Assembly (NCBI GenBank): GCA_030390025.1
Contig: CM059431.1
Coordinates: 132,930,001-132,994,000 of the forward strand
Direction: 5' to 3'
DNA: 64,000 nucleotides
Source of the DNA: Squalus acanthias
Lineage: Eukaryota
The position numbers were made by a program, and so were the translations under genes. Below the pieces are notes generated by a model that did not search any database, was not told where the DNA came from, and saw nothing but the letters and a program-made list of their open reading frames with translations. Shown in pieces: positions 10,310 to 64,000 of the stretch. The first letter of the stretch is position 1. Each line of letters begins with the position of its first letter.

Positions 10310-10848
10310 TTATGTACACTTTGCAACTGATGAAGCCAGTGTTACTGAGCGGGCGCTCGGCTTTGCAGCTCTGGCTGGCTTCCCACAGGTGCAGGGTGTC
10401 ATCAACTGCACACATGTGCCCATCAGGGCTCCCCCAGATCACCCAGGAGTGTTTGTGAACTGGAAGGACTTCCACTCCCTCAAGTGCAGCTCGTCTGTAA
10501 CCACAAATAGATCATCAGCTTCCTGCCAGGGAGACCAGGGAGTATGCCAGGGAGCTGTCATGATTCATTCATCCTGTGCCAGTCCACCCTCCCTCAGCTC
10601 TTTGCATCCTCTAACCAGACTTACCGGCTGGCTGCTTGGAGACAAGGGGTATCCACTGAAGACGTGGTTGATGACACCCTTGAGAAGGCCAAGCAATTAG
10701 GCTGATTGACGACCAGATGTGTCATAGAGCAAGCAATCGGGATGCTGAAGGTGCACTTCAGATGCCTGGACAGATCTGGAGGAGCCCTTCAATACGCACC
10801 AGCCAGGGTCTCCAGAATGATTGTCCTATGCTGTGCTCTGCACAACCC
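10310..10848 (+). pseudogene. Harbinger DDE transposase remnant (frameshifted, truncated)
   Basis: [23 protein letters not shown] and VIEQAIGMLKVHFRCLDRSGGALQY...CCALHN across several frames. Confidence 0.9.
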
Positions 10849-17095: not shown

Positions 17096-17218
17096 GGCGG
17101 TCTCTTCCTGGCTTTTTCTGTGGTAGACATTTTTGCACCACTCATTCTGACAGAGAGAGAGATTCTGAGAGAGAGATAGAGAGACTTTCACATAGAGTCA
17201 ACGCTGTGTGAAGTAGTT

Positions 17219-18436
17219 TTGGCTACTGAGCATCACTTTGCAGGTACTTTTGGATTTGACCTTCATTACTTCGATTGCCAAGAGACTTTGGGGGCTGCAC
17301 TGATTTGGGGCGTCTTCCTGTGCCTGCAGAATCGGAGGCAACATAGACGCAGAGAGAGACTGGCAATCATGGCCAGGCGGAGGAGGGCCAACAGGCCTCT
17401 GCACAGGAGACCTTACCCTCCCAGGGTATTCTGGGAACAATTCTCCTACATTCATTTGTCTGAGGAGCAGTGTTTGCGCAGGCTGCGCTTCAGCAAAGAG
17501 GTGGTCACTGAGCTCTGCCACCCGCTGCAGCCAGATCTGCAGCCTCAACTGAGGACCAGGACGTCTCTGTCAGTGGCAGTGAAGGTCACAGTGGCTCTGA
17601 ATTTTTATGCCATCGGCTCCTTTCAAGCAGCTACTGGGAACATCGCCAATATCTCCCAGTTCGCGGTCCATTGCTGTATCCGTCAGGTCACAAATGCCCT
17701 CTATAAAAGGAGACGCCAGTACATCTCTTTCCCGATGACCCGGGCCAAACAGCATGAACGCGCATGTGGCTTTGCTAGGATAGCGGGCTTCCCCATGGTG
17801 CAGGGCGCCATTGACTGCACGCATGTGGCATTGCGGGCACCGCATGAGAATGCAGAGGATTTCCGCAACCGCAAGGGGTTCCACTCCTTAAACGTCCAGT
17901 TGGTCTGTGACCACAGACAGCTGATACTCGCTGTCAATGTCCGCTATCCTGGCAGCAGCCACGATGCTTTCATCCTGCACCAGACTGCTGTGCCAGAACT
18001 TTTCCAGGCACCACATCAGCCAAGTGGTTGGCTCCTCGGGGACAAGGGTTATCCACAATGCACCTGGCTGATGACACTGCTCCGTAACCCCAACACCCCT
18101 GCTGAGCTGCGGTACAATGAGAGCCATCTCACCACCAGGAACATCGTTGAGCAGACGATCGGCGTGCTCAAGCAACGGTTCCGCTGTCTGGACCACTCAG
18201 GAGGAGCCCTGCAGTACTTGCCTGAGCGAGTCTCCCTCTTCATAGTGTGCTGCATGCTTCACAACCTGGCAATCCTGAGGACCCAGCCAATGTCACCAGG
18301 CCTTGGAGCACCACCTGAGGAGGAGGAAGAGGAAGAAGAGGAGGATGATCAGCAGCAGCACCAAGGCGGGAGGGAGGCCCACAACGTTGAAACTGCAAGG
18401 GCCGTCCGTCAACGGCTGATAACAAGCCGCTTCTAG
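17219..18436 (+). CDS. PIF/Harbinger DDE transposase (HARBI1-like family), uninterrupted ORF; likely start at ATG 17369 or at TTG 17288, the position where homologues have ATG
   Basis: GAIDCTH (D), NRKGFHS, YPGSSHDAFIL, LLGDKGY (D), RNIVEQTIGVLKQRFRCL (E), CCMLHN and an acidic tail; no stops or frameshifts. Confidence 0.9.
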   Translation: MATEHHFAGTFGFDLHYFDCQETLGAALIWGVFLCLQNRRQHRRRERLAIMARRRRANRPLHRRPYPPRVFWEQFSYIHLSEEQCLRRLRFSKEVVTELCHPLQPDLQPQLRTRTSLSVAVKVTVALNFYAIGSFQAATGNIANISQFAVHCCIRQVTNALYKRRRQYISFPMTRAKQHERACGFARIAGFPMVQGAIDCTHVALRAPHENAEDFRNRKGFHSLNVQLVCDHRQLILAVNVRYPGSSHDAFILHQTAVPELFQAPHQPSGWLLGDKGYPQCTWLMTLLRNPNTPAELRYNESHLTTRNIVEQTIGVLKQRFRCLDHSGGALQYLPERVSLFIVCCMLHNLAILRTQPMSPGLGAPPEEEEEEEEEDDQQQHQGGREAHNVETARAVRQRLITSRF

Positions 18437-26519: not shown

Positions 26520-29500
26520 ATGACTGCTGCAAGAGCAAAGGCTGCTCCTCGTTTTGCTGAAGATTCCCTCCAAGCTCTTGTGGAGGGAGTAAGAGGGCGC
26601 AGGGAGATTCTGTTCCCTCCCGATGGCCGGAGGAAGCCTCCTCAGCAGACAAAGGCAGCCTGGCTGAAAGTTGCTGAGGAGGTCAGCGCAAGGTCCTTAT
26701 GCTCACGCACATGGGTACAGTGCTGAAAACGGTTCAATGATCTTCTGCACTCAGCAAAAGTGAGTGCCACATCACACGTACCTTTAATCTGCTTCCCTTC
26801 TCTTCTCATCACAGCACTCTGCATTGTCAGCCTGCTCCTCCACATCCCACCTTACCCTTACTTCCCTTGCACCCTTACCTATCCCTCTCTCTCTGTAATG
26901 AATCACTGCACCATCCCACTATGCACCCCTCACACTTGCTCTCACTGTTATGCAATGACAACAACTAACAACGCACAGGGAGGCACCTTCCTCTTGCCAC
27001 CTCACTCCATCTTGGTCTCCCTCTAAGCTTCTAGAATCATAGGATCATAGAAAGTTACAGCACGGAAGGAGGCCATTTCGGCCCATCGTGTCCGCGCCGG
27101 CCAACAAAGAGCTATCCAGCCTAATCCCACTTCCCAGCTCTTGGTCCATAGCCCTGCAGGTTAGAGCATCCCAAGTGCACATCCCAGTACTTTTTAAATG
27201 TGGTTAGGGTTCCTGCCTCTACCACCCTTTCAGGCAGTAAGTTCCAGACCCCCACAACCCTCTGGGTGAAGAAATTTCCCCTCAAATCCCCTCTAAACCT
27301 TCCACCAATTACTTTAAATCTGTGCCCCCTGGTTTTTGACCCCTCTGCTAAGGGAAATAGGTCCTTTCTATCCACTTTATCTATGCCCCTCATAATTTTA
27401 TACACCACAATAAGGTCTCCCCTCAGCCTCCTCTGTTCCAAGGAAAACAGACCCAGCCTATCCAATCTTTTCTCATAGCTAAGATTCTCTACTCCCGGCA
27501 ACATTCTTGTAAATGTCCTCTGTACCCTCTCTAGTGCAATCACATCTTTCCTGTAATGTGGTGACCAGAACTGCACGCAGTACTCTAGCTGAGGCCTAAC
27601 TAGTGTTTTATACAGTTGAAACATAAGCCCCCTGCTCTTGTATTCTATGCCACGGCTAATAAAGGCAAGCATTCCGTATGCCTTCTTAACCACCTTATCT
27701 ACTTGGCCTGCTACATTCAGGGATCTGTGGACATGCACTCCAAGGTCCCTTTGTTCCTCTACGCTACTCAGTATCCTACCATTTAATGTGTATTCCCTTT
27801 CCTTGTTAGCCCTCCCCAAATGCATTACCTCACACTTCTCCGGATTGAATTCCATTTGCCACTGTTCTGCCCACCTGACCAATTTATTGATATCTTCCTG
27901 CAGTCTACAGCTTCCTTCTTCAGTATCAACCACACAGCCGATTTTAGTATCATATGCAAACTTCTCAATCATACCCCCTATATTCAAGTCAAGATCGTTG
28001 ATATATACCACAAAAAGCAAGGGACCTATTACTGAGCCCTGCGGAACCCCACTGGAAACAGCCTTCCAGTCACAAAAACACCCATCAACTATTACCCTCT
28101 GCTTCCTGTCTCCGAGCCAGTTTTGAATCCAACTTGACACTTTGCCCTGGATCCCATGGGTTTTTAACTTTGTGACCAGTCTGCCATGTGGAACCTTATC
28201 AAAAGCCTTGCTAAAGTCCATATACACTACATCAAACGCACTACCCTCATCTACCCTCCATGTTACCTCCTCAAAAAATTCAGTCAAGTTTGTCAGACAC
28301 GACCTTCCCTTAACAATCCCTTAACAAATCCGTGCTGACTATCCTTGATTAATCCGTGTCTTTCTAAATGAAGATTTATCATTTCCTTCAGAATTCTTTC
28401 CAATAATTTTCCCACCACTGAGGTTAGGCTGACTGGCCTGTAATTACTCGGTCTATCCTTTTCTCCCTTTTTAAACTGTTATGGAGGATAGTTAAGGATT
28501 CTTCACAGTCACTCTATCAATCTCGCTGAAACTCCACTTGTTTCCCTCCTTGCAGGAAAAGATAGCCCACAATAAGAGGGAGAGAGGGAGGACAGGAGGA
28601 GGGCCACCATCCCTGGCAACTTTGACAAGCGCTGAGGAGGCTGCTCACGACATCGTGGGAGGTGGCGAGGAGCTGGAAGTGGGGGACGGAGAGACGGGCG
28701 CAGTAGAGGAAGCTGCTGACAGAATAGATTTGCAACCCTCTCAGTTAGATTGCATGATTGACTGAAATGGCAAATGATGTTCATACAGATTGACGATAGG
28801 ATGTGTCTGCTACCTCCAAATCTGATGTCTAACTTATGTCTTTACTTTCCCACAGGATCATCAAGAGCCCCCCTCCCCATTGTCCAGGAGGAAGAGCCGG
28901 ACGACTCCTCAGAGGAAGCTGCAGCCTCTGAGGTAGCAGCGTCACCAGAACTCAGTGCATCCAACACCAGCGCAGATACACGCACCTCGACGGGTCCTTC
29001 ACGATGTAGAGTAGTGTTGTCACCTGGTGTATCACAGCTCACAAGTGAGCATCAGCAGATGGTGGAGACAGCGACAGCAGAGGAGAGTCCTCGTCGGAGG
29101 TCGCAGGATGCTCTGAGATCTGCTCAGCTGCATGTAGACGCTGTGCCTCTGGGGCCATCCAGAAAGAGAGCGGTGCTGGTACTCCAGGAACAAGTGCAGG
29201 AGTCTCTGACAGGGTTTGCATCCACAGTAACTGTGAGTGTGCATGGAATGGAGGAGTCCATCACAAACATGAGCACTGCCGCGGTGAACGCAATGGCGAA
29301 TGAATGTGCCGCCATGGAAAGGATGGCAACCACCATGGAGGACATAAATTGCCAGACTCAACAGAGCATGGTGACCCTTCTAAATAGAAGGTCTGCTATG
29401 GAGGATAGATGGGCATCTATTGAGGAGAGGCACCAGAGGTACATGGACGTCCCTGTTATGAGGACTGTCAGTACAGAGCTGGGTCCTCATGTCCCCACTG

Positions 29501-29969: not shown

Positions 29970-31026
29970 AGCGTTGGCCTATGTGTGCTCAGAAATGTAA
30001 GTATCACAGTGAGGGGTCAGGGCGCCTTTCATGTGTAATGATGGTGGTGAGAGTGATAGGAAACCACAGTGCCACGCTGCTGTGCGATATTTTGCAGGGC
30101 ACAGCAGACGACGAGGATTCTGATGCATCTGGTGGAAATGTGGCTCACATTGTAGCGCTCCTCAGCCTCGTTTGATGGCCTCCTCATCGGTGTCATTAGC
30201 CACTTTTTCAGGGGATAGCCCTTGTCTCCAAGTAGCCATCCAGAAAGTTGTCTTGGCGGATTGAAGAGCTGAGGCACAGTAGACTGCCGAAGGATGAACG
30301 AGTCATGGCAACTGCCAGGGAACTTGGCGCAAACATGCATAATGTTCTTCCTGTGGTTACACACCAACTGGACGTTAAGTGAGTGGAAGCCCTTGCGGTT
30401 CACAAATACAGCTGGGTTGTGATGGGGTGCCCTAATGGCCACATGTGTGCAGTCTACGATGCCCTGCACCCTTGGGAAGCCTGCCATATTTGCAAAGCCA
30501 ACCGCACGCACAGTTACACTTCCTTCATCCGTGGAGAAGTGGATGTAATTGTGGGCCTTTGCAAAGAGGGCATCGGTAACCTGCGTGATGCAACAGTGGG
30601 CAGCCGACTGGGAGATGCCGCTGATGAGCCCTGGAAGGAGCCCGAAGCAAAGAAGTTGAGTGCAGTGGTGACCTTGACAGCTACTGGTAAGGAGTGTCCA
30701 CCCACACCTCTGGGCTCCAGGTGTTGGTGCAGCATTGCGCAGATGTCAGCGACTATGTCTCATGAAAGTCTCAGCCTCCTTTGGCACTGCTGCTCACTCA
30801 TGTTGAGGAAGCTCATCCTCGGCCTGTAAACCCTGTGTTGGGGGTAGCTCCTGCAGCGAGCTGCAGCCCTGCCCTGACGCCCTCTGCCCTGTGCATCATC
30901 AGGTGGGTGAGGAGAAGGTTGGCGCTCCTGATGTTGGTGCTGCTGCTGTGCCTGGTTGTGCTGCTGCTGCGGCTGCTCTTCCTCCGAATCTGGCGACCAG
31001 GATGAGAGGATATAAATGGTTCCCAT
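29970..31026 (-). pseudogene. Harbinger DDE transposase, frameshifted, with an internal deletion removing the Glu-containing segment
   Basis: [50 protein letters not shown]. Confidence 0.9.
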
Positions 31027-31551
31027 TCCGTTAGTATATATCTCGGTTGAGGAATAGAGGTTGCAAGCGCTCAGTCAAAGAGGCCAATGGATATTCCAAG
31101 GAGGTCACACTGTAGATGGATCTCAGGTTGAACACTCACAAGATCAGTTAGCCAAAACCTCAAAGCACTAAGTTGTGGCATCTGAAACTCAGCCATGTTG
31201 TAGGACCGCTTTTAAGCTGCAGTAGCAGCTGTCAACAATTCAGGTCCTTGCTAAACCCGGCACATTGCAGCTGGCGTGTTTGTCGGACGATGGGCAACAC
31301 GCAGAAAATGCTCCAAAATCAGAATAGGCAATTAAAATAAGATTATCCTGGCAGTTAACAAGCTGTTAACTGCCTTAAGTGCCTCTCCCGCTGTTTGGTG
31401 TCAGGTCTCATCGGGACTCGCAGACCCAACACTTGGTAAAGTAGCGTGGAGGCGGGATGATGGCAGGTTCGCATCACGCCGTCAATCATTTAGCTTTTTA
31501 CTCCCGACCCACCTCCAAACCCGCCCTCTGAGCACCGGCAAATTCGTGGCC

Positions 31552-33285
31552 TTTGTGTCTGCCTTCACGGAAGAAGACGCAAAAACCTTCCCGGAAATAG
31601 TGGAGAACCAAGGCTGTAGCGAGAATGAGGAACTGAAAGAAATTACTATTAGTAAAAAAATAGTACTGGAGAAATTAATGGGACTGAAAGTCGATAAATC
31701 CCTGGGGCCTGATGGCCTACATCCTAGGCTTTAAAAGAGTTGGCTATAGAAATAGTGGCTGCATTGGTTGTCAATTACCAAAATTCCATAGATTCTAGAA
31801 TGGTTCCCGCGGATTGGAAGGTAGCAAATGTAACCCCACTATTTAAGAAAGGAGGGAGAGAGAAAACGAGGAACTACAGAGCAGTTAGCCTGACATCAGT
31901 AGTAGGGAAAATGTTAGAATCTATTATTAAGGACGTGGTAACAGGGCACTTAGAAAATAATAATAGAATTGGGCAGAGTCAACACGGATTTATGAAAGGG
32001 AAATCATGTTTGATGAATCTGTTACAGTTTTTTGAGGTTGTAACTAGCAGAATAGATAAGGGGGATCCAGTGGATGTGGTGTATTTGGATTTTCAGAAGG
32101 CATTCGGTAAGGTGCCACACAAGAGGTTATTAAACAAAATTAGGGCTCATGGGATTGAGTGTAATATACTAGCATGGATTGAGGATTGGTTAACGGACAG
32201 AAAACAGAGAGTAGGAATAAACGGGTCATTTTCTGGTTGGCAGGCTGTAACTAGTGGGGTACCGCAAGTATCATTGCTTGGGCCTCAGCTATTCACAATC
32301 TACATCAATGATTTGGATGAGGGGACCAAATGTAATATATCCAAGTTTGCTGATGATACAAAGCTAGGTGGGAATGTAAGTTGTGAGGAGGATGCAAAGA
32401 GGTTTCAAGGGGATATAGACAGCCTAAGTGAGTGGGCAAGAACATGGCAAATGGAATATAATGTGGAGAAATGTGAAGTTATCCACATTGGTAGAAAAAA
32501 TAGAAAAGCAGAGTATTTTTTAAATGGTGAGAGATTGGGAAATGTTGGTGTTCAGAGGGACCTGGGTGTCCTTGTACAAGAATCACTGAAAGTTAACATG
32601 CAGGTACAGTAAGCAATTAGGAAAGCAAATGGTACGTTGGCCTTTATTACAAGAGGATTTGAGTATACGAGTAAAGACGCCTTACTGCAATTATATGGGG
32701 CCCTTCTGAGACCACACCTGGATTGTTGTGTACAGTTTTGGTCTCCTTACCTAAGGAAGGATATACTTGCCATAGAGGGAGTGCATTGAAGGTTCACCAG
32801 ACTCATTCCTGGGATGGGGGGATTGTCCAATGAGGACAGATTGAGTAGACTAGGCCTATATTCTCTAGAGTTTAGAAGAATGAGAGGTGATCTCATTGAA
32901 ACATACAAAATTCTTACAGGGCTTGACAGGGTCAATGCAGGGAGCATGTTTCCCCTGGCTGGGGAGTCTAGAACCAGGGGTCACAATCTCAGAATAATGG
33001 GTCGGCAATTTAGGACTAAGCTGAGGAGAAATTTCTTCACTCAGAGGGTGGTGAATCTTTGGAATTCTCTTCCCCAGAGGACTGTGGAGGCTCAGTCGTT
33101 GAGTATATTCAAGACAGAGATCGATAGATTTTTGGATATTTAGGAAATCAAGGGATATGGGGATAGTGCGGGAAAGTGGAGTTGAGGTAGAAGATCAGCC
33201 ATGATCTTATTGAATGGTGGAGCAGGCTCGAGGGGCCAAATGGCCTACTCCTGCTCCTATTTCTTATGTTCTTATGTACTTATGT
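31552..33285 (+). mobile_element. CR1 LINE, 3' part (RT domain and 3' UTR), continuation of 24611-26281
   Basis: [27 protein letters not shown] tail; several stops. Confidence 0.95.
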
Positions 33286-33413: not shown

Positions 33414-36400
33414 TTTTTTTTTATTAGTTCCTGGGATGTGGGCGTCGCTGGCTAGGCCAGCATTTATTACCCATCCCTAATTGCCCTTGAGAAGGTGGTG
33501 GTGAGCCGCTTCTTGAACTGCTGCAGTCCGTGTGGTGAAGGTACTCCCACTGTGATGTTAAGGAGAGAGTTCCAGGATTTTGACCCAGCGACGATGAAGG
33601 ATCGGCAATATATTTCCAAGTCAGGATGGTGTGTAACTTGGAGGGGAACTTGGAGGTAATGATGTTCCCATGCGCCTGCTGCCCTTGTCCTTCTAGGTGG
33701 TAGATGTCGCGGGTTTGGGAGGTGCTGCTGAAGAAGCCTTAGCGAGTTGCTGCAGTGCATCTTGTAGACACTGCAGCCACGGTACGCCGGTGGTGGAGGG
33801 CATGAATATTTAAGGTTGTGGATGGGGTGCTAATCAAGCGGGCTGCTTTATCCTGGATGGTGTCGAGCTTCTGGAGTGTTGTTGGAGCTGCACTCATCCA
33901 GGCAAGTGAAGAGTATTCCATCACACTCCTGACTTGTGCCTTGTAGATAGTGGAAATGCTTTGGGTAGTCAGCAGGTGAGATACTCAACGCAGAATACCT
34001 AGCCTCTGACCTGCTCTTGTAGCCACAGTATTTATATGGCTGGTCCAGTTAAGTTTCTGGTCAATGGTGACCCCCAGATGTTGATGGTGGGGGATTCGGC
34101 GATGGTAATGCCGTTGAATGTCATGGGGAGGTGGCTAGACACTCTCTTGTTGTAGATAGTCATTGCCTGGCAGTCATCAGCGAACATCCCCACTTCTAAC
34201 CTTATGATAGAGGGAAGGTCATTGATGAAGCAGCTGAAGCTGGTTGGGCCTAGGACACTGCCCTGAGGAACTCCGGCAGCGATGTCCTGGGGCTGTGATG
34301 GTTGATCTCCAACAACCACAACCATCTTCCTTTGGGCTAGGTATGACTCCAGTCAGTGGACAGTTTTCCCCGTGAATCCCATTGACTTCAGTTTTACTAG
34401 GGCTCCTTGATGCCACACTCAGTCAAATGCTGCCTTGATGTCAAGGACAGTCACTCTCACCTCACCTCTGGAATTCAGCTCTTTTGTCCATGTTTGGACC
34501 AAGCCTGTAATGTGGTCTAGATCCGAGTGGTCCCGGCGGAACCGAAACTGGGCATTGGTGAGCAGGTTATTAGTGAGTAAGTGTCGCTTGATAGCACTGT
34601 CAACGACACCTTCCATCACTTTGCTGATGATTGAGAGTAGACTGATGGGGTGGTAAGTGGCCGGATTGGATTTGTCCTGCTTTTTGTGGACAGGACATAC
34701 CTGGACAGTTTTCCACATTTTTGGATATATGCCAGTGTTGTAGCTGTACTGGAACAGCTTGGCTAGAGGTGCAGCTAGTTCTGGAGCGCAAGTCTGCAGC
34801 ACAACAGCCAGGATGCTGTCGGGGCCCATAGCCTTTGATGTATCCAGTGCGCTCAGCCATTTCTTGATATCACGTGGAGTGAATCGAATTGGCTGAAGAC
34901 TGGCTTCTGTGATGGTGGGGACCTCAGGAGGAGTTCGATATGGATTTGGCACTTTTGGCTGAAGATGGTTGCAAACGCTTCAGCCTTGTCTTTTGCATTC
35001 ACGTGCTGGGCTCCACCATCACTGAGGGTGGGGATATTCATGGAGCCTCCTCCTCCCGTTAGTTGTTTAATGGTCCATCACCATTCACAACTGGATGTGG
35101 CAGAACTGCAGAGCTTTGATCTGATCCGTTGATTGTGGGATCGCTTAGCTCTCTCTATAGCATGCTGCTTCCGCTGTTTAGCATGCATTTAGTCCTGTGT
35201 TGCAGCTTCCCCAGGTTGGTACCTCATTTTTAGGTACGTGTGTTGCTGCTCCTGGCATGCTCTTCTGCACTCCTTATTGAACCAGGGTTGGTCCCCTGGC
35301 TTGATGGTAATGGTAGAGTGAGGGATATGCTGGACCATGAGGTTACAGATTGCGGTGAAATACAATTCTGTTGCTGCTGCTGGTGGCCCACAGCGCCTCA
35401 TGGATTCCCAGTTTTGAGCTGCTAGATCTGTTCTGAATCTATCCCATTTAGCACTGTGGTAGTGCCACACAACACGATGGAGGGTGTTCTCAGTGTGAAG
35501 ACGGGACTTCGTCTCCACAATGACTGTGCGGTGGTCACTGCTATCAATGTTGTCATTTACAAATGCATCTGCGACAGGTAGATTGGTGAGGACGAGGTCA
35601 AGTAGGTTTTTCCCCTCGTGTTGGTTCTCTCACCACCTGTCACAGGCCCACATGGCAGCTATGTCCTTCAGGACTCGGCCAGCTCAGTCAGTAGTGGTGC
35701 TACCGAGCCACTCTTTGTGATGGACATTGAAGTCCCCCACCCAGAGTACATTCTGTGCCCTTACTGCTATCATTACTTCTTCCAAGTAGTGTTCAACATG
35801 GAGGAGTACTGATTCATCAGCTGAGGGAGGGCAGTAGGTGGTAATCAGCAGGAGCTTTCCTTGCCCATGCTTGACCTGAAGCCATGAGACTTCATGGGGT
35901 CCGGAGTCAATGTTGAGGACTCCCAGGGCCACTCCTTCCCGATTGTATACCACTGTGCTGCCACCTCTAGTTGGTCTGTCCTGCCGGTGGGACAGGACAT
36001 ACCCAGGGATGGTGATGGAGGAGTATGGGACATTGGCTGAAAGGTATGATTCTGTGAGTATGACTATGTCAGGCTGCTGCTTGACTAGTCTGCGGGACAA
36101 CTGTCCCAATTCTGGCACAAGTCCCCAGATGTTCGTGAGGAGGCCTTTGCAGGGTCGACTGGGCTGGGTGTGCCATTGTCGTACCCGTAGCCGGTGCCGA
36201 GGTCGATGCCGGGTGGTCCGTCCGGCTTTGTTCTTCTTACTGTTTTTCCTGCTTGCTAGGTAATTTCAGAGGGCAGTTAAGAGTCAACCACATTGCTGTG
36301 GGTCTGGAGTCACATATAGGCCAGACCAGGTAAGGACAGCAGATTTCTTTCCCGAAAGGACATTAGTGAACCAGATGGGATTTTACGACAATCCGATATT

Positions 36401-36635
36401 TCTTCCTCATGTGCTCCCACAACCTATGGAAATAGGAGACAGTGCTTGCTCAGTGAGCCATCTCATTCCATTTCATGGTTTCATGGTCACCATTACTGAT
36501 ACCAGTTTTTTACTCCAGATTTATTTAATTAACTGAATTTAAGTTCCCCAGCTGTCGTGGTGGGATTTGAACTCATGTCCCATGATCATTATTCTAGGTC
36601 TCTGGATTACTAGTCCAGTAACATAACCACTATGG
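33414..36635 (-). mobile_element. CR1/L2-group LINE family 2 (APE-RT, degraded) with a tRNA-like 5' head and A-rich 3' end
   Basis: PDIVILTESYL and WVGDFN (APE); [23 protein letters not shown] (RT); 3' GCTGGCCTAGCCAGC hairpin then AATAAAAAAAA; head at ~36550-36635. Confidence 0.9.
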
Positions 36636-41039: not shown

Positions 41040-43260
41040 GGCCTAGAAATTCGATTGCGGTGGAAACTGGGCACGCAGGGGACGGGGTGCACACTGTTCA
41101 CGCCTGTTAGTGGTGTCCCATGCAGCACATAATATTCACGCTGCAAGCTCATTTATGAGTCAGGTGTGCAGCCAGTGCTACCTGCGCTATTCATTGGCTG
41201 TCCGTCTGTTTGGAGGGGCCAGAAATCGGGTGTCACGCCACTTAAAGGCAGCCAGCACCCTTTAAAGTAACAGAAATGGCTGCAGCAAGGACTGAGAGGG
41301 CACCAAGGTTTTCTGATGCTGCCTTCGAGGCCCTGGTGCAGGCAGTGGATGGGAGAAGGGAAATCCTGTTGCCCCTAGGGGGTAAAAACAACTCCACTGT
41401 CAGTGGCAAGAGATGGCAGAGGAAGTGAATGCAAGAAGCCTAGCTCCCAGGACATAGCTTCAATGCCACAGAAAGTTCAAAAACCTTACCAGAGTCTTCA
41501 ATAAGAATACTGCTCTCTTACTCTCTATTCACACCTCCACCACCTCTAGCCTCACTACTTACAATACTCTCCTGCCCCACTTCCCTTCACTCTCCTACAA
41601 TCACTGCACCACATTTCACTCCACCTTATTCTCCTCATGCTCACATACTCACCACTATTCCAACCCTCACTTTCCCACACCTCACATCTTCTACAAACTA
41701 CATACCAACTATTTTACCATGACAGGCGCACTCTCTAAACACCTCACATGACTGTCACTAACACACGCCCTTTTTTGCCGGAGAAGGTCACCCACAACCT
41801 GAGACAGGAGGCTGGCACTGTGAGAGGCCGAGCCCACCTGCACACCCTCTCCTCCGTCGAAGTGAATGGGCAGGGGCGGAGTGATGGCCACGGTGACTGG
41901 CAACGCTGGATTTCTTCACAACTTATCATCTTTTTCCCTACTTAACTCTATCTCACCCTACACACCAGCCACTTCTTTCTTTGCTCTCCCTTCACACTAA
42001 AAGTTAACCCTTGCCTCTCTTTTTCATGTCATGGGCTGAACATGTAGACGCTCCCCTGCCACGTCAGGCAGATGAAGGCGCCCTCCTAAAGATGATGCAT
42101 TACTCCATCTGACCTTAGCAGCACCAGCTCAGAGACTGGCACCATGGGTACTTTAGAGACTAGGCTGCAGGAGGGGTCTTCATGTCATGAATTACCGGCT
42201 GTCAGTGTGCAGAAGCTAGGCCATGGGGTTAGGATGCCACAGGTGCTAGCTCTCATCAGGTCGTGATCATATACTAGCTCTGCTGTAGAAGACTTAGATA
42301 CAGACTTGGAGAGCCCAGAATAGTGAAGATGGCTGATGGGCATACATCAGGAAATGCTCGGTGCACTGGGCAGCCTGCCAGCGAGCTTGCACACAATGGC
42401 TCAGAGCATGGAGGGGTCCAGCTCCAACTTGTGTCAAGGCTTCACCAGAGCATGGAGACCATTCTTTCCAACATGGAACTAATGGTCTGCTCCAGGAACA
42501 TGACATTGGCGTCCACCATGATTGAGTCTCTGCTGACAGCTGTGACAGCTTCCATGCAGCTCACACTGCTACCATTGACGTTCAGACAGCTGCCATCTTG
42601 GCCAATGTTAACAGGAACCTCCAAAGCATCACATCAGTCCTGCACTCTGTTCTCATGCAGAGCTGGAGGTGTCCTGAGGCGCAGTCCCAAGAGAGTGGTC
42701 TTGGCTCCATGGTAGAGGAACCTGCTATCCTCTTAGTATGACAGAATGCCTGCTCTCCCGCCAGCCATTCTGCCAGTGCCCTTGTTAGTACCAAACAGCC
42801 AGCTGGACCAGACTGCCCTGGCCCACACCAAGATGCTACAGGCGGACTGTCAAGGCACACAGCTGCTCGAGGTCACCCACCATGGCCATCTGACGTGTCC
42901 TCAATTGAAGTACGCCAACCAACGTTCCCTACAAGGCCGCGCACCTCTCTGCCAGTCCCGCGCAGCCCGGGACCGGCTTTTTCAATATAAAGTTTCGAAA
43001 CTCTATGGGGCGCACAGCCACTTAAAGGGGCCGCACACCAACTAAAACTATCTGCTCGATTATATTTCTGGTGGTGGCATGGTTCTCACTGTAGGCCACC
43101 TCTGCCTGCTGTGCCCGAATTCCTGACAGGAGTCACGAACCATGTCTGTAGGGGATAGTCACTTAGTCGCCAGCCTGTGACCTGATGGCCTGGTTGGAAC
43201 AAAGGTGGCACAGAGGACTGAAGTAGGATGAATGAATCATGAAGCCCCAGCATCTTGAAT
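41040..43260. mobile_element. Degraded Harbinger element (G): Myb-like gene (+, 41276-~42915) and transposase fragment (-, ~43085-43255); hAT-MITE-like piece at ~42920-43050
   Basis: End GGCCTAGAAATT is identical to the Myb-side end of element H; MAAARTERAPRFSDAAFEALVQAV; HDSFILLQSSVPPLF...YPLQTWFVTPVRN. Confidence 0.75.
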
Positions 43261-43269
43261 CTTGCCCTG

Positions 43270-44343
43270 AGAGACTCCTGTAAATTGCAACCTAAGATCT
43301 CAATAGTCACATCATTCAGGGGAAAAGCTGGATCTGGGCTTTGGACCTTTGGCTGCGCGGACTCCCCTACATATAACCTTAGATTTGCCACATGCTCTGT
43401 AATGACCTGGAGGTCTGTGAATCTGTCCTGTCCTGCTGCAGTGATATCAGACCTGTAGTTTTGAATATTACCCAACAGTCTTCGCAGGGTTCCATGAACA
43501 TTCTCAAAGGACCGAAAGAAGTGGCTCTGTTGATCTATCAACTCTTTTCTATAGACAGCTCCTGTAAGGTAAGCATTCGTGAGCCCTGCAGCAGAGCAAC
43601 ATCTGCAGCTGGCCCTGCACTTAGCTGTTTTGGGGCCCTCAGCTGCCCCCTCCACTTCTTCATCATCACTTGTGCTGTATGAATCTTTTAATGGTTCCTC
43701 CTGGCTAACCTTCTCTATATTGCCCAAGGTAGATTTCTTTGAGCTGGTGGCTGCGCAAGGTAAACTGGGTCATCCTGTTGCTGTGATTAAGTGGGCTCTT
43801 GTGCATCATTGGAAATCCCTGTAGAAAGAGGAAACATATGTTACAATTGCCAAAACGTGAAAAGGTTGTGATGCAGATAACATGTCAAGACATTACGTGC
43901 CATGCTGCTGCTGTGCATTGTATACCAGCGATTTAGTGAGTGAGTGAGTTTGCAGGAGGAACAATAAGACTAAGAAGGATACAAGTTCTGAGGGCACAGA
44001 AAGCTGCTAAGCTCCCTTTCCTCCAATCCCTAAAGGTAGTCTACCCATAATATATAGGCCAGCTTCTTCATGTCTGTTGAGTGGATGAAGATTGGGAGCA
44101 CTGTACTGGTTGCAGTGGTTATGGACCATCTTCTCCTGCAAACAGATACAAAACATATAAATGTTAGAATACGTAATAGCAAAGAATACCACCTCGGTGG
44201 ACAGCCTTCATCTCACCTTCTGTGAATGCAGGATAATTCAGCAAACAAGTCATTTCTGTTGACTATGTGCATTGGGGGAGTCACATGATAAATTTGTATG
44301 AGACATTATCTGCATATTTCAGTGCCAGCTATAAAGTGCAACC
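43270..44343 (-). pseudogene. Old Harbinger Myb-like gene remnant (continues at 47490 after the CR1)
   Basis: TTGCAG|GAGAAGATGGTCCATAAC exon-2 start at ~44136; intron homologous to 37290-37380. Confidence 0.55.
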
Positions 44344-44943
44344 TATGGAATAAAGGGGACAGTGGCAGCATGGATACAAAATTGGCTAAGTGACAGAAAA
44401 CAGCGAGTAGTGGTGAACAATTGTTTATCGGACTGGAGGAAGGTATACAGTGGTGTTCCCCAGGGGTCGCTACTAGGACCACTGCTTTTCTTGATATATA
44501 TTAATGACTTAGACTTGGGTGTACAGGGCACAATTTCAAAATTTGCAGATGACACAAAACTTGGAAGTATAGTGAACAGTGAGGAGGATAGTGATAGACT
44601 TCAAGAGGACATAGACAGTCTGGTGGAATGGGCGGACACGTGGCAGGTGAAATTTAATGCAGAAAAGTGCAAAGTGATACATTTTGGTAGGAAGAACGAG
44701 GAGAGACAATATAAACTAAAGGGTACAATCCTAAAGGGGGTGCATGAACAGAGAGACCTGGGGGCATATGTGCACAAATTGTTGAAGGTGGCAGGGCCGG
44801 TTGAGAAAGCGGTTAAAAAAGCATACGGGATCCTGGGCTTCATAAATAGAGGTCATGATGCGGAGATGCCGGTGTTGGACTGGGGTGGACAAAATTGAGA
44901 GGTCGCACAACACCAGGTTATAGTCCAACAGTTTTATTTGAAA

Positions 44944-44981
44944 TCACAAGCTTTCGGAGCTATCGCTCCTTCCTCAGGTGA
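44944..44981 (-). ncRNA. Minimal hammerhead ribozyme motif (mirror copy)
   Basis: Exact reverse complement of 46768-46805. Confidence 0.75.
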
Positions 44982-45316
44982 AGTAAATTGGATACAGAAT
45001 CGCCAGAGCATATATAGATGGAAAAAAAAAGCATGTGTACTTTACAATTGCAGACCAATAAATTAAATCATCCTGACTATCTGCCGAGGTGTGATAAAGT
45101 TAATTAAGTCAGCCAGGAAGGTACCACATCAAAAGACATAGCAAGATACAACTGAGACAATGAGGTGTAGTCGCAGGGGTTCCAACGTGTCAAAAGCTGC
45201 CGTCTGTATGTAAAACGAAAAGCTTTAAAAAAAAATTTACTTTTTTACTGGGAAAATTTTTACTTTTTTACTGGGAATCACATCTGTGAACAAGCTAACG
45301 ACGACTCGAGTCCGGA

Positions 45317-45874
45317 TCACGTCATGTATCGTGACATAAACCCAAGATCCCGATTGAGACCGTCTTCATGAGTGCGGAACTTGGCTATCAGTTTCTGCTC
45401 GATGATTTTGCGTTGTCGTGTGTTTCTAAGGTTGCCTTGGAGAACGCTTACCCGCAGATCCGAGGCTGAATGTCCTTGACTGCTGAAGTGTTCCCCGACT
45501 GGGAGGTAACAATCCTGCCTGGCGATTGTTGCGCGGTGCTCGTTCATACGTTGTCTCAGTGTCTGCATGGTCTCGCCGATGTACCATGCCGCGGTGCATT
45601 CTTTCCTGCAACGTATGAGGTAGACAACGTTGGCCGAGTCACATGAGTATGTACCATGTACCTGGTGGGTAGTGTCCTCACGTGTGATGGTGGTATCTGT
45701 GTTGATGATCTGGCATGTCTTGCAGAGTTTGCCATGGCAGGGTTGTGTGGTGTCGTGGTCGCTGTTATCCTGAAAGCTGGGTAATTTGCTGCGAACGATG
45801 GTACTTCTGAGGTTAGGCGGCTGTTTGAAGGCAAGTAGTGGAGGCGTGGGGATGGCCTTAGCGAGGTGTTTGTC
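45317..45874 (-). CDS. Truncated Penelope ORF C-terminus: Cys-rich linker and GIY-YIG endonuclease (left arm)
   Basis: PCHGKLCKTC, NVVYLIRC...WYIGET...RQRMNEH, GLN; no native start codon. Confidence 0.85.
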   Translation of the reverse strand, partial: DKHLAKAIPTPPLLAFKQPPNLRSTIVRSKLPSFQDNSDHDTTQPCHGKLCKTCQIINTDTTITREDTTHQVHGTYSCDSANVVYLIRCRKECTAAWYIGETMQTLRQRMNEHRATIARQDCYLPVGEHFSSQGHSASDLRVSVLQGNLRNTRQRKIIEQKLIAKFRTHEDGLNRDLGFMSRYMT

Positions 45875-46432
45875 GACAAACACCTCGCTAAGGCCATCCC
45901 CACGCCTCCACTACTTGCCTTCAAACAGCCGCCTAACCTCAGAAGTACCATCGTTCGCAGCAAATTACCCAGCTTTCAGGATAACAGCGACCACGACACC
46001 ACACAACCCTGCCATGGCAAACTCTGCAAGACATGCCAGATCATCAACACAGATACCACCATCACACGTGAGGACACTACCCACCAGGTACATGGTACAT
46101 ACTCATGTGACTCGGCCAACGTTGTCTACCTCATACGTTGCAGGAAAGAATGCACCGCGGCATGGTACATCGGCGAGACCATGCAGACACTGAGACAACG
46201 TATGAACGAGCACCGCGCAACAATCGCCAGGCAGGATTGTTACCTCCCAGTCGGGGAACACTTCAGCAGTCAAGGACATTCAGCCTCGGATCTGCGGGTA
46301 AGCGTTCTCCAAGGCAACCTTAGAAACACACGACAACGCAAAATCATCGAGCAGAAACTGATAGCCAAGTTCCGCACTCATGAAGACGGTCTCAATCGGG
46401 ATCTTGGGTTTATGTCACGATACATGACGTGA
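45875..46432 (+). CDS. Truncated Penelope ORF C-terminus: Cys-rich linker and GIY-YIG endonuclease (right arm)
   Basis: Translation identical to the left arm. Confidence 0.85.
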   Translation, partial: DKHLAKAIPTPPLLAFKQPPNLRSTIVRSKLPSFQDNSDHDTTQPCHGKLCKTCQIINTDTTITREDTTHQVHGTYSCDSANVVYLIRCRKECTAAWYIGETMQTLRQRMNEHRATIARQDCYLPVGEHFSSQGHSASDLRVSVLQGNLRNTRQRKIIEQKLIAKFRTHEDGLNRDLGFMSRYMT

Positions 46433-46767
46433 TCCGGACTCGAGTCGTCGTTAGCTTGTTCACAGATGTGATTCCCAGTAAAAAAGTAAAAATTTTCCCA
46501 GTAAAAAAGTAAAATTTTTTTTAAAGCTTTTCGTTTTACATACAGACGGCAGCTTTTGACACGTTGGAACCCCTGCGACTACACCTCATTGTCTCAGTTG
46601 TATCTTGCTATGTCTTTTGATGTGGTACCTTCCTGGCTGACTTAATTAACTTTATCACACCTCGGCAGATAGTCAGGATGATTTAATTTATTGGTCTGCA
46701 ATTGTAAAGTACACATGCTTTTTTTTTCCATCTATATATGCTCTGGCGATTCTGTATCCAATTTACT

Positions 46768-46805
46768 TCACCTGAGGAAGGAGCGATAGCTCCGAAAGCT
46801 TGTGA
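46768..46805 (+). ncRNA. Minimal hammerhead ribozyme motif
   Basis: TCAC-CTGAGGA-A-GGAGC(GATA)GCTCC-GAAA-GCTT-GTGA, with palindromic AAGCTT. Confidence 0.75.
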
Positions 46806-47649
46806 TTTCAAATAAAACTGTTGGACTATAACCTGGTGTTGTGCGACCTCTCAATTTCATAAATAGAGGCATAGAATACAAAAGCAAGGAAGTTATGATG
46901 AACCTTTATAAAACACTGGTTCGGCCTCAACTGGAATATTGTGTCCAATTCTGGGCACCGCACTTTAGGAAGGATGTGAAGGCCTTAGAGAGGGTGCAGA
47001 AAAGATTTACAAGAATAGTTCCAGGGATGAGGGATTTCAGTTACATGAAGAGACTGGAGAAGCTGGGGTTGTTCTCCTTAGAGCAGAGAAGGTTGAGAGG
47101 AGATTTGATAGAGGTGTTCAAAATCATGAGGGGTCCAGACAAGAGTAGATAGAGAGAAACTGTTCCCATTGGCGGAAGGGTCTAGAACCAGAGGACACAA
47201 ATTTAAGGTGATTGCCAAAAGAACCAAAGGCGACATGAGGAAAAACTTTTTTACGCAGCAAGTGGTTAGGATCTGGAATGCACTGCCTGAAAGGGTGGTG
47301 GAGGCAGATTCAATCGTGGCTTTCAAAAGGGAATTGGATAAGTATCTGAAGGAAAAAAAATTGCAGGGTTACGAGGAAAGGGTGGGGGAGTGGGAATAGC
47401 TGAAGTGCTCTTGCAGAGAGCCGGCACAGGCTCGACGGGCTGAATGGCCTCCTTCTGTGCTGTAACCATTCTATGATTCTATGATTCTAGTCATATGAGC
47501 ATGGGAGTGCATGTAGTACAGAACTGAAAGAGGGCCTTACACACAACTTGATGAAATGACACATGTATCCTGCACCAAAAATATACGTAGTGATAGAAAT
47601 TGGACCTCGATGCACCTAACTAACAGGTATAAAACTAGCACAATGAGGC

Positions 47650-55826: not shown

Positions 55827-56946
55827 ATGGGTGCAGTAGTTTGTATCTCCCTTGACCTGCAGCATGACCGGAAGAATAAGCAGAGGCGACACAGAGCAGG
55901 ACAAGATGCTCAAAGAGGGAGGAGGAGGAGGGGGAGAAGCGGCTCTCAGCAGGAGGCCATATCCATCCAGGGTAAACAGGGAGCAAGTCTCCTATCTCAA
56001 CCTCAGCGAGAACAGTGTATGCGACGTGTTCGCTTCACCAAGGAAGTGCTCACTGAAATCTGCCACCTGTTGCAGGCAGAACTGCAGCCTCGGAGCAGGC
56101 CGAGGGCGGCATTGTCAGTGGCTGTGAAGGTGAACCAGAGGCCATGAAATTTTATGCGTTGGACTCCTTCCAGGCTGGAGCAGGTGATATTTCCAACGTC
56201 TCCCAGTTTGCTGTGCATTATTGCCTAAGGGAGGTCACTGAGGCTCTGTATGCAAAGAGAGCTGAATACATTTCATTCTCTCTGGCCAGCGAGAAGCAGG
56301 TGGAGCGATCACGCAGCTTCACCAGGATAGCAGGCTTCCCCATGGTGCAGGGTGCCATTGACTGCACACATGTCGCTCTGCGGGAGCTGCATGTCAATTC
56401 TGAGATGTACCGCAACCGGAAGGGATTCCAATCCCTCAAAGTCCAGCTGGTGTGACGACCATACTCAGCGCATCATGCAGGTCAATGCCCGGTATCCTGG
56501 CAGCAGCCATGATGCCTTCATTATGCAGCAGTCCGCTGTACCATCCGCATTTGAGCGATCACGACAAACCAGAGGGTGGCTACTGGGTGACAAGGGCTAT
56601 CCGCTGACCATCTGGCTTGTGACTCTGTTGCGCAACCCAAGCACACGTGGGCAGCATGCATCTAATGAAAGCCATGCTGCCACATGGAATGTCACTGAGC
56701 AGACCATTGGGGTGCTTAAACAATGTTTCTGCTGCCTGGACCGCCAGATCGCATCCCAAGATATGTCGTGGTCTGCTGCATGCTGGGCAACCTCAGCATC
56801 ATGAGGGTACAGCCCTTGCCACCAGGCATATGGCGAAAAGCTGAAGAGGAAGAGGAGGAGGAGGAGAAAGAAGGGAGGAGGCAACCAACACAGCCCCTTT
56901 CTGGCGGGCTGCACGTGATCGACTCATCTGACTGTGGTACCAGTGA
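55827..56946 (+). pseudogene. Harbinger DDE transposase with several frameshifts
   Basis: RRPYPSRV, GAIDCTH, YPGSSHDAF, LLGDKGY, VTEQTIGVLKQ, poly-Glu. Confidence 0.92.
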
Positions 56947-59796: not shown

Positions 59797-61462
59797 CGGC
59801 AGCTGGGGAATTTAAATGCAGTTAATTAAATAAATCTGTAATAAAAAACTAGTATCAGTAATGGTGACCATGAAACTATCGGATTGTTGTAAAACCCTAT
59901 CTGGTTCACTAATGTCCATTACCTGGTCTGGCCTATATGTGACTCCAGACCCACAGCAATGTGGTTAACTCTTAACTTCCCTCTGAATTGGCCGAGCAAG
60001 CCGCAAGCCACTCAGTTGTACGCAACCGCTATGAAAAACCATAATAAGGATAAAACCGGACGGACCACCCGGCACTGGCTATGGACATGACAATGGCACA
60101 CCCAGCCCAGTCGACCCTGCAAAGTGCTCCTCACAAACATATCTGGGGACATGTGCCAAAATTGGGAGAGCTGTCACACAGTCTAGTCAAGCAACAGCCT
60201 GACTGACATAGTCATACTCACAGAATGATATCTTTCAGCCAATGTCCCAAACTCCTTGATCACCATCCCTGGGTTTTTCCTATCCCACCAGGCAGGACTA
60301 GTCCCACCAGAGAGGTGGTGGCACAGCGGTATACAGTCGAGAGGGAGTGGCCCTGGGAGTCCTCAACATTGGCTCCGGACATGAAGTCTCATGGCTTCAG
60401 GTCAAACATGGGCAAGGAATCCTCCTGCTGATTACCACCTACCGCCCTCCCTCAGCTGATGAATCAGTACTCCTCCATGTTGAACACCACTTGGAAGAAG
60501 CACTGAGAGTAGCAACGGCACAGAATGTACTCTGGGTGGGGGACTTCAATGTCCATCACCAAGAGTGGCTCGGTAGCAGCACTACTGGCTGAGCCTTGAA
60601 GGACATAGCTGCCAGTCTGGGCCTGTGACACGAAAACGAGGGAAAAACCTACTGGACCTTGTCCTCACCAATCTACCTGTCGTAGATGTATCTGTCCATG
60701 ACAACATTGGTAGCAGTGACCACCACACAGTGGAGATAAAGTCCCACCTTCACACTGAGGACACCCTCCATCATGTTGTGTGACACTACCACCGTGCTAA
60801 ATGGGATAGATACAGAACAGATCTAGCAGCTCAAAATTGGGCATCCATGAGGTGCTGTGGGCCATCAGCAGCAGCAGAATTGTATTCCACCACAATCTGT
60901 AACCTCATGGCCCGGCATATCCTTCACTCTAACATTACCATTAAGCCAGGGGACCAACCCTGGTTCAATAAGGAGTGTAGAAGAGCATGCCAGGAGCAGC
61001 ACCAGGTGTACCTAAAAATGAGGTGCCAACCTGGGGAAGCTGCAACACAGGACTATGTGCCTGCTAAAAAGCGGAAGCAGCATGCTATAGACAGGGCTAA
61101 GAGATCCCACAATCAATGGATCAGATCAAAGCTCTGCAGTCCTGCCACATCCAGTTGTGAATGGTGGTGGACCATTAAACAACTAACGGGAGGAGGAGGC
61201 TCCATGAATATCCCCATCCTCAATGATGGAGGAGCCCAGCACGTGAGCGCAAAAGACAAGGCTGAAGCGTTTGCAACCATCTTCAGCCAGAAGTGCTGAG
61301 TGGATGATCCATATCGGCCTCCTCCTGAGGTCCCCACCATCACAGAAGCCAGTCTTCAGCCAATTCAATTCCCTCCATGTGATATCAAGAAACAGCTGAG
61401 CGCACTGGATACAGCAAAGGCTATGGGCCCCGACAACATCCCGGCTGTCGTGCTGAAGACTT

Positions 61463-63457
61463 AGAACATAAGAAATAGGAGCAGGAGTAGGCCATTTGGC
61501 CCTTCGAGCCTGCTCCGCCATTCAATGAGATCATGGCTGATCTTCTGCCTCAATTCCATTCACCGACCTTATCGCCATATCCCTTGATGCCCTTACTAGT
61601 CAAAAATCTATCGACTTCTGTTTTGAATATACCCAATGACTGAGCCTCCACAGCCCTCTGGGGTAGAGAATTCCAAAGATTCACCACCCTCTGTGTGAAG
61701 AAATTTCTTCTTATCTCAGTCCTGAATGGCCTACTCTTTATCTTGAGGCTGTGGCCCCTGGTTCTAGGCTCCCCAGCCAAGGGAAACATTCTCCCAGCAT
61801 CCACCCTATCAAGCCCTGTAATAATTTTGTATGCTTCAATGAGATCCCCTCTCATTCTTCTGAATTCAAGAGAATACAGGCCTAGTTTACTCAATCTCTT
61901 CTCATACGACAGTCCTGCCATCCCAGGAATCAATCTCGTGAACCTTCGTTGCACTCCCTCTATGGCAAGTATATCCTTCCTTAGGTAAGGAGACCAAAAT
62001 TGTACACAGTACTCCAGGTGTGGTCTCACCAAGGCCCTATATAATTGGAGTAAGACTTCTTTACTCCTGTACTCAAATTCTCTTGTAATGAAGGCCAGCA
62101 TACCATTTGCCTTCCTAATAGCGTGCTGCACCTGCACATTCACTTTCAGTGACTCATGTACAAGGACACCCAGGTTCCTTTGAACATCTGCATTCCCCAA
62201 TCTTTCACCATTTAGGAAATACTCTGCCTTTCTGTTTTTTCTACCAAAGTGGATAACTTCACATTTATCCACATTATAATCCATCTGCCATGCTCTCGCT
62301 CACTCACTGAGCCTATCGAGATCCCCTTGAAGCCTCTTCACATCCTCTTTGCAACTGACACTGCCACCTAGCTTTGTGTCATCAGCAAATTTGGAAATGT
62401 TACTTTTAGTCCCCTCATCCAAATCATTGATATAGATTGTGAATAGCTGGGGCCCAAGCACCGATCCTTGCGGTACCCCACTAGTCATAGCCTGCCATCC
62501 TGAAAAAGACCCATTTATCCCTACTCTTTGTTTTCTGTCTGTTAACCAATTCTCAATCCATGCTAGTATATTACCCCCAATTTCATGTGCCCTAATTTTG
62601 TTCACCAACCTCTTGTGTGAGACCTTATTGAAGGCCTTCTGAAAATCCAAATACACCACATCTACTGGTTCCCCTTTTTCTACTCCACTAGTTACATCTT
62701 CAAAGAACTCCAATAGGTTTGTCAAACAGGACTTCCCTTTCATAAATCCATGTTGACTCTGCCCAATCTTATTATTAGTTTCTAAGTGCCCAGTTATTGC
62801 ATCCTTTATAATTGATTCCAGCATTTTCCCAACTACTGATGTGAGGCTAACAGGTCTGTAGTTCCCCATTTTCTCTCTCCCTCCTTTCTTAAATAGCGGG
62901 GTTACATTTGCTATCCTCCAATCTGCAGGAATCGTTCCAGAATCTATAGAATTTTGGAAGATGACAACCAATGCATCCATTATCCCAATGGCCATCTCTT
63001 TCAAAACCCTAGGATGTAGGTCATCCGGTCCTTGAGATTTATCGACTTTTAGTCCCATTAATTTTGCTAGTACTGTTTTTTTACTATTAATAATTTCTTT
63101 AAGTTCCTCATTCTCACCACACCCTTGGTTTTCTCGTATTTCTGGGAGGTTTTTTGTGTCTTCCTCCGTGAAGACTGAAACAAAGTATTTATTTAATTTC
63201 TCAGCTATTTCCTCATTCCCCATTATAAATTCTCCCGTCTCTGACTGTAAAGGACCTACATTTACCTTTGCCAGTCTTTTCCTTTTCACATACCTATAGA
63301 AGCTTTTACAATCCGTTTTTATATTTTTCGCTAGTTTGTGCTCATATTCCATTTTCCCTTTCTTTATCAATTTCTTGGTCCCCCTTTGCTGATTTCTAAA
63401 AAATCCCAATCCTCAGGCTGACCGCTTTTTCTGGCAACTTTATAAGCTTCCTCTTTT
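61463..63457 (-). mobile_element. 5'-truncated CR1 LINE; ORF2 (63409-61550) broken by a single in-frame stop at 62300-62302
   Basis: Complete RT motifs ([23 protein letters not shown]); GACTT duplicated at both junctions. Confidence 0.95.
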
Positions 63458-64000
63458 GACTTGTGCTCCAGAACTAGCTGCACATCTAGCCAAGCCGTTC
63501 CAGTACAGTTACAACACTGGCATCTATCCGACAATGTGGAAAACTTCCCAGGTATGTCCTGTCCACAAAAAGGACAAATCTAATCCGGCCAATTACCGCC
63601 CCATCAGTCTACTCTCAATCATCAGCAAAGTGATGGAAGGTGTCATTGATAGTGCTATCAAACGGCACTCAACAATAACCTACTCATTGATGCCCAGTTT
63701 GGGTTCCACCAGGACCACTCAGCTCCAGACCTCATTACAGCCTTGATCCAAACATGGACAAAAGAGCTGAATTCCAGAGGTGAGGTGAGAGTGACTGCCT
63801 CTGACATCAAGGCAGCATTTGACCGAGTGTGGCATCAAGGAGTCCTAGTAAAACTGAAGTCAATGGGAATCAGGGGGAAAACTTTCCACTGGCTGGAGTC
63901 ATACCTAGCACAAAGGAAGATGGTTGTGGTGGTTGGAGGTCAATCATCACAGCCCCCAGGTTATTGCTGCAGGAGTACCTCAGGGCAGTGTCCTAGGACA

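Follow-up and report, generated by a model that had tools for sequence, protein, structure and literature searches.

Within the 64,000 nucleotides (nt) of Squalus acanthias analysed here (the window: assembly GCA_030390025.1, contig CM059431.1, positions 132,930,001 to 132,994,000 of the forward strand), a CR1-type long interspersed nuclear element (LINE) is interrupted by two inverted copies of the 3′ end of a Penelope-like element (PLE), which meet head to head with no spacer and form a palindrome of 1966 base pairs (bp). What sets it apart is the full symmetry over 1966 bp, together with an apex that adjoins a natural palindrome of the family, itself lost from the site. The structure very probably derives from one integration of a 5′-truncated PLE of Neptune type into an AT-rich spot of the CR1; as the route, priming from both ends of the cut target is tentatively favoured, and each of its reaction steps is one that we infer. 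The product is most likely a dead fragment without reverse transcriptase (RT) and without function. The insertion and its host comprise the following parts, in coordinates of the window:

44345..44852, + strand: left part of the host CR1-type LINE, 5′-truncated (RVT_1, Pfam E 5e-16; 5′ boundary approximate)
44839..44852, + strand: left copy of the target-site duplication (TSD), 14 of 14 nt identical to the right copy
44853..44891, − strand: PLE tail of 39 nt, on the left arm only (comparison of arm ends)
44892..45874, − strand (sense): left arm, PLE 3′ end with 5′ truncation (arm comparison)
45874..45875, no strand: apex, a 2-nt CG common to both arms and to the family sequence (contig loose ends, homolog alignment)
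45875..46857, + strand: right arm, the same PLE 3′ end, tail-less (arm comparison)
46472..46517, + strand: tandem duplication (23 nt) of a unit made of A and T runs, in the 3′ non-coding region of the PLE (mirror at 45230-45275)
46856..46869, + strand: right copy of the TSD, the first 2 nt of which also match the element end
46870..47490, + strand: right part of the host CR1, up to its 3′ ATTCTATG repeats (translation, self-BLAST to other CR1 3′ ends)

The ATTCTATG repeats are what we take to mark the CR1 3′ end. In self-comparison, the two arms of 983 nt (44892-45874 and 45875-46857) are separated by 0 nt, and their complementarity, counted outward from the centre, stops after 983 pairs. The sole mismatch pairs 45235 with 46514, where a run of A borders a run of T (A9T3 versus A8T4), and falls inside the 23-nt tandem duplication. 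The window holds no other perfect even palindrome with arms of at least 8 nt. Direct arm comparison thus bears out, for the assembled sequence, what a first reading made from the letters alone (the sequence-only reading) had described as a 1966-bp palindrome with a spacer of 0 and one mismatch; arms, tail, TSD, and apex are confirmed for the sequence as assembled.

The flanks of the insertion are the two halves of one CR1, whose RT frame reads AYGILG-FINRG on the left and FINRG-IEYKSK on the right and is therefore colinear across the site in translation, and a paralogous CR1 at 27124-28320 crosses the equivalent position uninterrupted. The TT at 46856-46857 is common to the end of the right arm and to the duplicated target, so that the length of the TSD is 12-14 bp; with this refinement, the 39-nt extra tail on one arm and the TSD within the CR1 stand as first described. 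The TSD and the colinear CR1 indicate a single insertion event, and the earlier proposal of one PLE insertion made by fold-back or by two-ended priming is supported.

Family-wide behaviour was followed in contigs assembled from four of 24 sequencing runs (X1 and X3 being one sample, perhaps that from which the window itself comes), which were compared with positions 44560-45900, a stretch that covers one arm, its left flank, and the 26 nt beyond the apex. The statements on contigs here and below refer to the rows listed, which comprise 15 of 44 joints, 24 of 1709 loose ends, 40 of 44 difference rows, and 32 of about 97,000 pieces; contigs matching two places (12, 11, 9, and 0 by run) may reflect the 23-nt tandem and were not used. 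In run X12, the loose ends of six contigs before 44852 differ from one another (agreement 0.53), which marks the end of the tail as a boundary of the family, and PLE ends without a tail, at 44888-44898, adjoin other flanks, so that both outer ends of the insertion coincide with family-wide boundaries. Junctions specific to the locus and an empty allele are not visible among the joints, loose ends, and pieces listed.

The same contigs yielded some observations on the target and on the family. Five of the joints run from the CR1 site 44848-44852 into the PLE end that has no tail (44888-44897); their cut points vary, all four runs contribute, and just one further joint connects CR1 with PLE. As these joints belong to other loci, PLEs seem to have struck this CR1 position repeatedly, although the CR1 flank holds spots that are more AT-rich than it. 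One contig, present in runs X1 and X3, returns from 44887 to 44856 after 15 letters of other sequence and represents a family variant in which the tail is repeated, and small insertions and deletions in family contigs cluster at the 23-nt tandem duplication.

The identity of the arms is given by their coding ends:

45875..46432, + strand: end of the coding sequence, open over 185 amino acids (aa), for the linker (CX4CxxC) and the GIY-YIG endonuclease of CCHH type (translation, Pfam, homologs)
45317..45874, − strand: left copy of the linker and GIY-YIG coding end, closed by a stop codon (87% to residues 460-643 of P0002 by tblastn)

The Pfam GIY-YIG match (E 2e-4) reaches 22.1 bits and is 0.5 bit short of the cut-off of 22.6, and the CCHH motif is present, with two Cys between GIY and YIG (VVYLIRCRKECTAAWYIG) followed by His residues and by R, H, E, and N. 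PLE homologs make up 32 of 214 candidate proteins, the top three coming from sharks (87, 84, and 80% identical); in P0002 (the top match, 87%) and in the two full-length environmental homologs P0005 and P0019, RVT_1 lies upstream of the endonuclease in one open reading frame, whereas the arms end before any RT, the insertion in the window being a fragment without it. The three Cys of the linker, C-HGKL-C-KT-C, are invariant across a 10-sequence alignment. A CX2-5CxxC linker is assigned to Neptune and Nematis and is reported absent in Penelope/Poseidon (PMC8557442). By this linker motif, the arms appear to belong to an endonuclease-bearing (EN+) PLE of Neptune/Nematis type; membership of the strict Penelope/Poseidon clade, which requires that the linker be absent, was rejected. 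The insertion also shows the EN+ PLE plan of an adjacent inverted 5′-truncated copy, a one-sided tail of 30-40 bp, and a variable TSD. A DNA transposon of miniature inverted-repeat (MITE) or foldback type was likewise considered and set aside, because the arms represent the 3′ terminus of a retroelement, complete with tail and hammerhead. A pattern scan of metagenomes gave one relative among 196 matches, only 28% identical and of no help to the identification. The family is very abundant, since 36,109 contigs of run X1 match the 1341-nt stretch of CR1 and PLE. Pieces of this PLE endonuclease also occur in shark gene models (P0007, P0008, P0020, P0021, P0024, P0031, and P0032) that bear the names of host proteins (septin 5a, XRCC5, a cytochrome P450, and others), and may represent either exonisation or annotation error.

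The position of the apex provides the one new clue. Past 45875, the family contigs continue with identical letters in all four runs (11, 17, 13, and 5 contigs), and these letters, together with the G at 45875, constitute a perfect 12-nt palindrome, GTCATCGATGAC, encoding V-I-D-D as in the homologs. The insertion turns round one base into this 12-mer, which would start at 45875 on the + strand and is itself absent, and no palindrome of 12 nt exists inside the 983-nt arm. The chance of a 12-nt palindrome within 10 nt of a given point, estimated post hoc from the 18 found elsewhere in the window, is about 0.6%. The apex beside the 12-mer points to a palindrome-guided turn-around during integration. 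In the literature searched, no account of such an apex or of twin priming in PLEs was found, although cases may be shown in Figure 2 of PMC3846280 and in Figure S2 of PMC11167929; the available part of a preprint (10.64898/2026.07.22.740005) contains nothing on inverted insertions.

In the favoured route, the element protein would nick both target strands 12-14 bp apart, and both 3′ ends would prime reverse transcription on RNA from one source locus, one primer starting at the distal site to give the tailed arm and the other at the proximal site to give the tail-less arm. Both cDNAs would reach the natural self-complementary 12-mer and be joined there head to head, either by stopping one base into it and annealing through the 2-nt CG, or by pairing through the 12-mer, with subsequent loss of the 12-nt tip; fill-in would then leave a perfect palindrome within the TSD. 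A PLE protein of anole cuts and extends both strands in vitro, begins reverse transcription at two sites between which the tail lies, and is a predicted dimer (PMC11167929), and priming of this kind on two strands from two start sites would account for the tailed arm, the tail-less arm, and the TSD. Identical cDNAs can pair symmetrically only at a self-complementary site, and an apex located at one fits two-ended joining; head-to-head junction palindromes have been reported to abound in rotifer PLEs (PMC3846280).

Several points weigh against two-ended priming. The apex does not appear among the joints listed, none of which changes strand, and a 2-nt CG overlap would make a weak join. At all nine sites where the letter in the window is the minority one of the family in run X1, the two arms agree, so that two templates would have to share one locus or one transcript. 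For the missing 12-mer no result offers an explanation, and two-ended priming, like fold-back, needs a further assumption to account for it. The evidence comes from one locus, with a chance figure calculated after the fact, and the in vitro data concern a Poseidon-clade element, of a clade that appears to differ from that of the PLE in the window.

One version of two-ended priming, a small share of that route's own probability and drawn from a single locus, would predict the observed apex directly: the 12-mer would link two element RNAs, and a protein dimer would prime one of them from each nick. Each reverse transcriptase would stop where the 12-bp RNA duplex begins, and the cDNA ends would be joined through the exposed CG. 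If this were the case, head-to-head PLE insertions would arise by twin target-primed reverse transcription from paired RNAs, and their apices would be placed by palindromes of the element that are themselves missing from them. The paired-RNA model found no precedent in the literature searched.

The close rival of two-ended priming is fold-back self-priming, a possible although less probable origin, in which one cDNA, started from the top-strand nick at the tail end, would pass the 12-mer, fold back, and copy itself; at the tail boundary, which is an ATT site sharing 2 nt (TT) of microhomology with the target, this copy would be cut or captured, and the tip of the hairpin would be trimmed. Junction palindromes have been interpreted in print as the result of self-priming (PMC3846280), resolution mediated by the endonuclease has been proposed as the source of tails (PMC8557442), and arms copied from each other would be identical at the nine minority-letter sites with no extra assumption. 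The 12-mer is also positioned where the fold-back primer is needed, but the 12-mer, or a 9-nt loop in slipped register, should then be present at the apex, and neither is. The two self-complementary bases that the apex offers in the family sequence are too few for priming, and an extra step is needed for the copy to stop exactly at the tail boundary.

It is rather unlikely that a real insertion has been smoothed by the assembly, its true apex having the 12-mer or a short spacer, or its arms differing more than they now do after consensus building or polishing with reads of the many other copies. The apex has no read-level support among the contig rows listed, the lone mismatch is at a homopolymer border, the family is very abundant (the 36,109 contigs of run X1), and tandem or inverted PLE structures are hard to assemble (PMC8557442). 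Set against this, the clean loss of exactly 12 palindromic bases would be an odd error, and polishing toward the family would erase minority letters, nine of which persist in both arms. Much less probable is the later doubling of a single-arm insertion by the host, through a template switch in replication, or through repair, at the 12-mer. Template switching by the host generally leaves inverted junctions at short palindromes, and to that extent the site fits such an origin, but the doubled stretch stops precisely at the tail boundary, includes none of the CR1 around it, and leaves the TSD intact. That the whole palindrome is a fold-back read or an assembly artefact, as its near-perfect symmetry and the lack of a listed contig piece spanning the stretch might suggest, is hardly credible when the symmetry ends at the element ends, the tail is on one arm only, and the flanks are colinear halves of one CR1 with a TSD; the sequence-only reading had already held the TSD and the CR1 against it, and the confinement of the symmetry to the element adds to this.

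The age of the insertion can be stated better in relative than in absolute terms. In run X1, the CR1 flank has four sites in 293 nt at which at least 90% of the depth differs from the window, and the PLE part has at most one in 1022 nt (45183, 79-92% by run), a difference in density (Fisher p 0.01) that indicates that the insertion is younger than its host CR1. With a rate of 7e-10 per site per generation, taken from another species, the epaulette shark (PMC10587355), one difference between the arms corresponds to 0.02-4 million generations and none to up to 2.7 million, a loose limit that gene conversion between the arms or polishing would loosen further. The insertion, earlier called very recent, is so with respect to the CR1; in absolute time, up to about 4 million generations are allowed, and the lone mismatch lies at a homopolymer border.

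Each arm also carries a predicted ribozyme motif:

46768..46805, + strand: minimal type I hammerhead, right copy (descriptor match 46772-46805; predicted cut after 46801)
44944..44981, − strand: minimal type I hammerhead, left copy (descriptor scan, mirror)

The purpose-built descriptor (CUGANGA core, stem II, GAAA, UH site, stem I of 4-5 bp, and a palindromic rudiment of stem III) has three matches in the 64 kb, all in PLE sequence (the two arms and one other PLE remnant), and none in any of ten mononucleotide shuffles. Stem III of the arm motifs is the palindromic AAGCUU alone, of the dimer type. A search of Rfam returned no hammerhead match; its eight miRNA rows at the apex, far below the gathering score, and two weak rows were discarded as by-products of symmetry or chance. 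The monomer fold is not the minimum-energy structure, and against shuffles the hammerhead regions have z-scores of -0.66, -0.58, and -1.95, only the 33-nt core being better. The outward-pointing hammerhead proposed for each arm is thus recovered, as a prediction, by the descriptor, though without an Rfam match. Minimal hammerheads of metazoan PLEs have a short stem I, an unpaired base 5′ of stem II, and a palindromic loop for dimer formation (PMC4209133).

The consequences envisaged for the palindrome fare unequally. Long near-identical arms with a spacer below about 9 bp, the features of a fragile, cruciform-prone palindrome by a threshold derived from yeast, are present in the assembly. Rearrangements and breaks become more frequent in yeast where inverted repeats have no spacer (PMC8053094), which makes fragility of the 1966-bp palindrome plausible by analogy. 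Read-through RNA, if made, is computed to fold as one stem with 979 mirror pairs because of arm symmetry alone; at all six positions checked, the sense hammerhead is predicted to pair with its antisense mirror and should, in this model, be inactive. Neither the extrusion of a cruciform, nor read-through transcription, nor the further claim that such double-stranded RNA could silence the family finds support here. In the Pfam scan, which covered 79 of the 215 open frames of at least 75 aa in the window, no host-gene domain was found, only RT, AP-endonuclease, and Harbinger-type transposase, short exons being possible, and in a very abundant family one more hairpin would add little. Small RNAs of PLEs are reported in rotifers and Drosophila (PMC3846280), and Penelope RNA of lizard is heavily A-to-I edited (PMC5625713). 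In a vertebrate, editing would seem a likelier fate than silencing for a hairpin RNA of a PLE; the A>G and T>C counts of run X12 equal those of the DNA runs and are uninformative on editing. About 1 kb to the left of the insertion lies a 227-aa open frame (43086-43769, − strand) with no Pfam match and with possible splice-acceptor-like pyrimidine tracts near it, which, if it belongs to a transcribed gene, would bear on read-through.

The window contains other repeats. An older remnant of a different PLE family (3969-4283 and 4600-4636, + strand), with an endonuclease end about 41% identical to homologs, has its own minimal hammerhead, and no inverted copy of it was seen in self-comparison. Four frames of Harbinger-type transposase (DDE_Tnp_4) are found at 17180-18436, 10077-10700, 30029-30745, and 56331-56804, one of them open over 418 aa, and LINE-derived stretches in opposite orientation, 25-30 kb apart and 85-90% identical, pair 31551-33272 with 61463-63185 and 34249-36401 with 59874-63997.

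The locus itself is minor, a dead fragment from a very abundant family, surrounded by other repeats, and is useful as a clean fossil of PLE integration, the route to the inverted copy being an open question in the available accounts (PMC3846280, PMC8557442, PMC11167929). An apex that adjoins a natural palindrome but lacks it gives a testable prediction on PLE integration. If the apex is true and the insertion common to individuals, a spacerless palindrome of 2 kb can persist in a vertebrate germ line.

Compared with known systems, the insertion is a tidy example of a known PLE insertion type, for which an adjacent inverted 5′-truncated copy, a junction palindrome, a one-sided tail, and a TSD have been published (PMC3846280, PMC8557442, PMC8969392); the layout first reported is therefore real but not special, a head-to-head copy with a junction palindrome being the described norm. 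Pen2a_Av and its kin from Adineta vaga (Arkhipova et al. 2013, PMC3846280) are alike in the head-to-head inverted copy, the junction palindrome, and insertion into a retroelement, with a tail of 31 bp versus 39 here and a TSD of 9-10 bp versus 12-14 here. They differ in that an inverted pLTR of about 180-210 bp stands beside a long direct part, an asymmetric arrangement, whereas in the window the copies are cut at the same base, all 1966 bp are symmetric, and no RT is left. The general EN+ PLE plan (Craig et al. 2021, PMC8557442) shares the 5′ truncation, the adjacent inverted truncated copy, the 30-40 bp tail, the hammerhead in the terminal repeat, and the CCHH endonuclease; arms of equal length and an apex beside a deleted palindrome are not described in the available part of that account. 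The minimal PLE hammerheads of Cervera and De la Pena (2014, PMC4209133) have the architecture of the arm motifs, with no real stem III, but their opposite-strand pairs lie 100-700 bp apart, compared with about 1.8 kb here, where cleavage is a prediction. PAc, the Poseidon-clade element of Anolis carolinensis (Frangieh et al. 2024, PMC11167929), is of another clade, lacks the Cys linker present here, and is not treated with respect to inverted products in the text available; it is alike in its two ends differing by the tail, its AT-rich target, and its terminal hammerhead, and its in vitro cutting and extension of both strands fits the two junctions of the present insertion.

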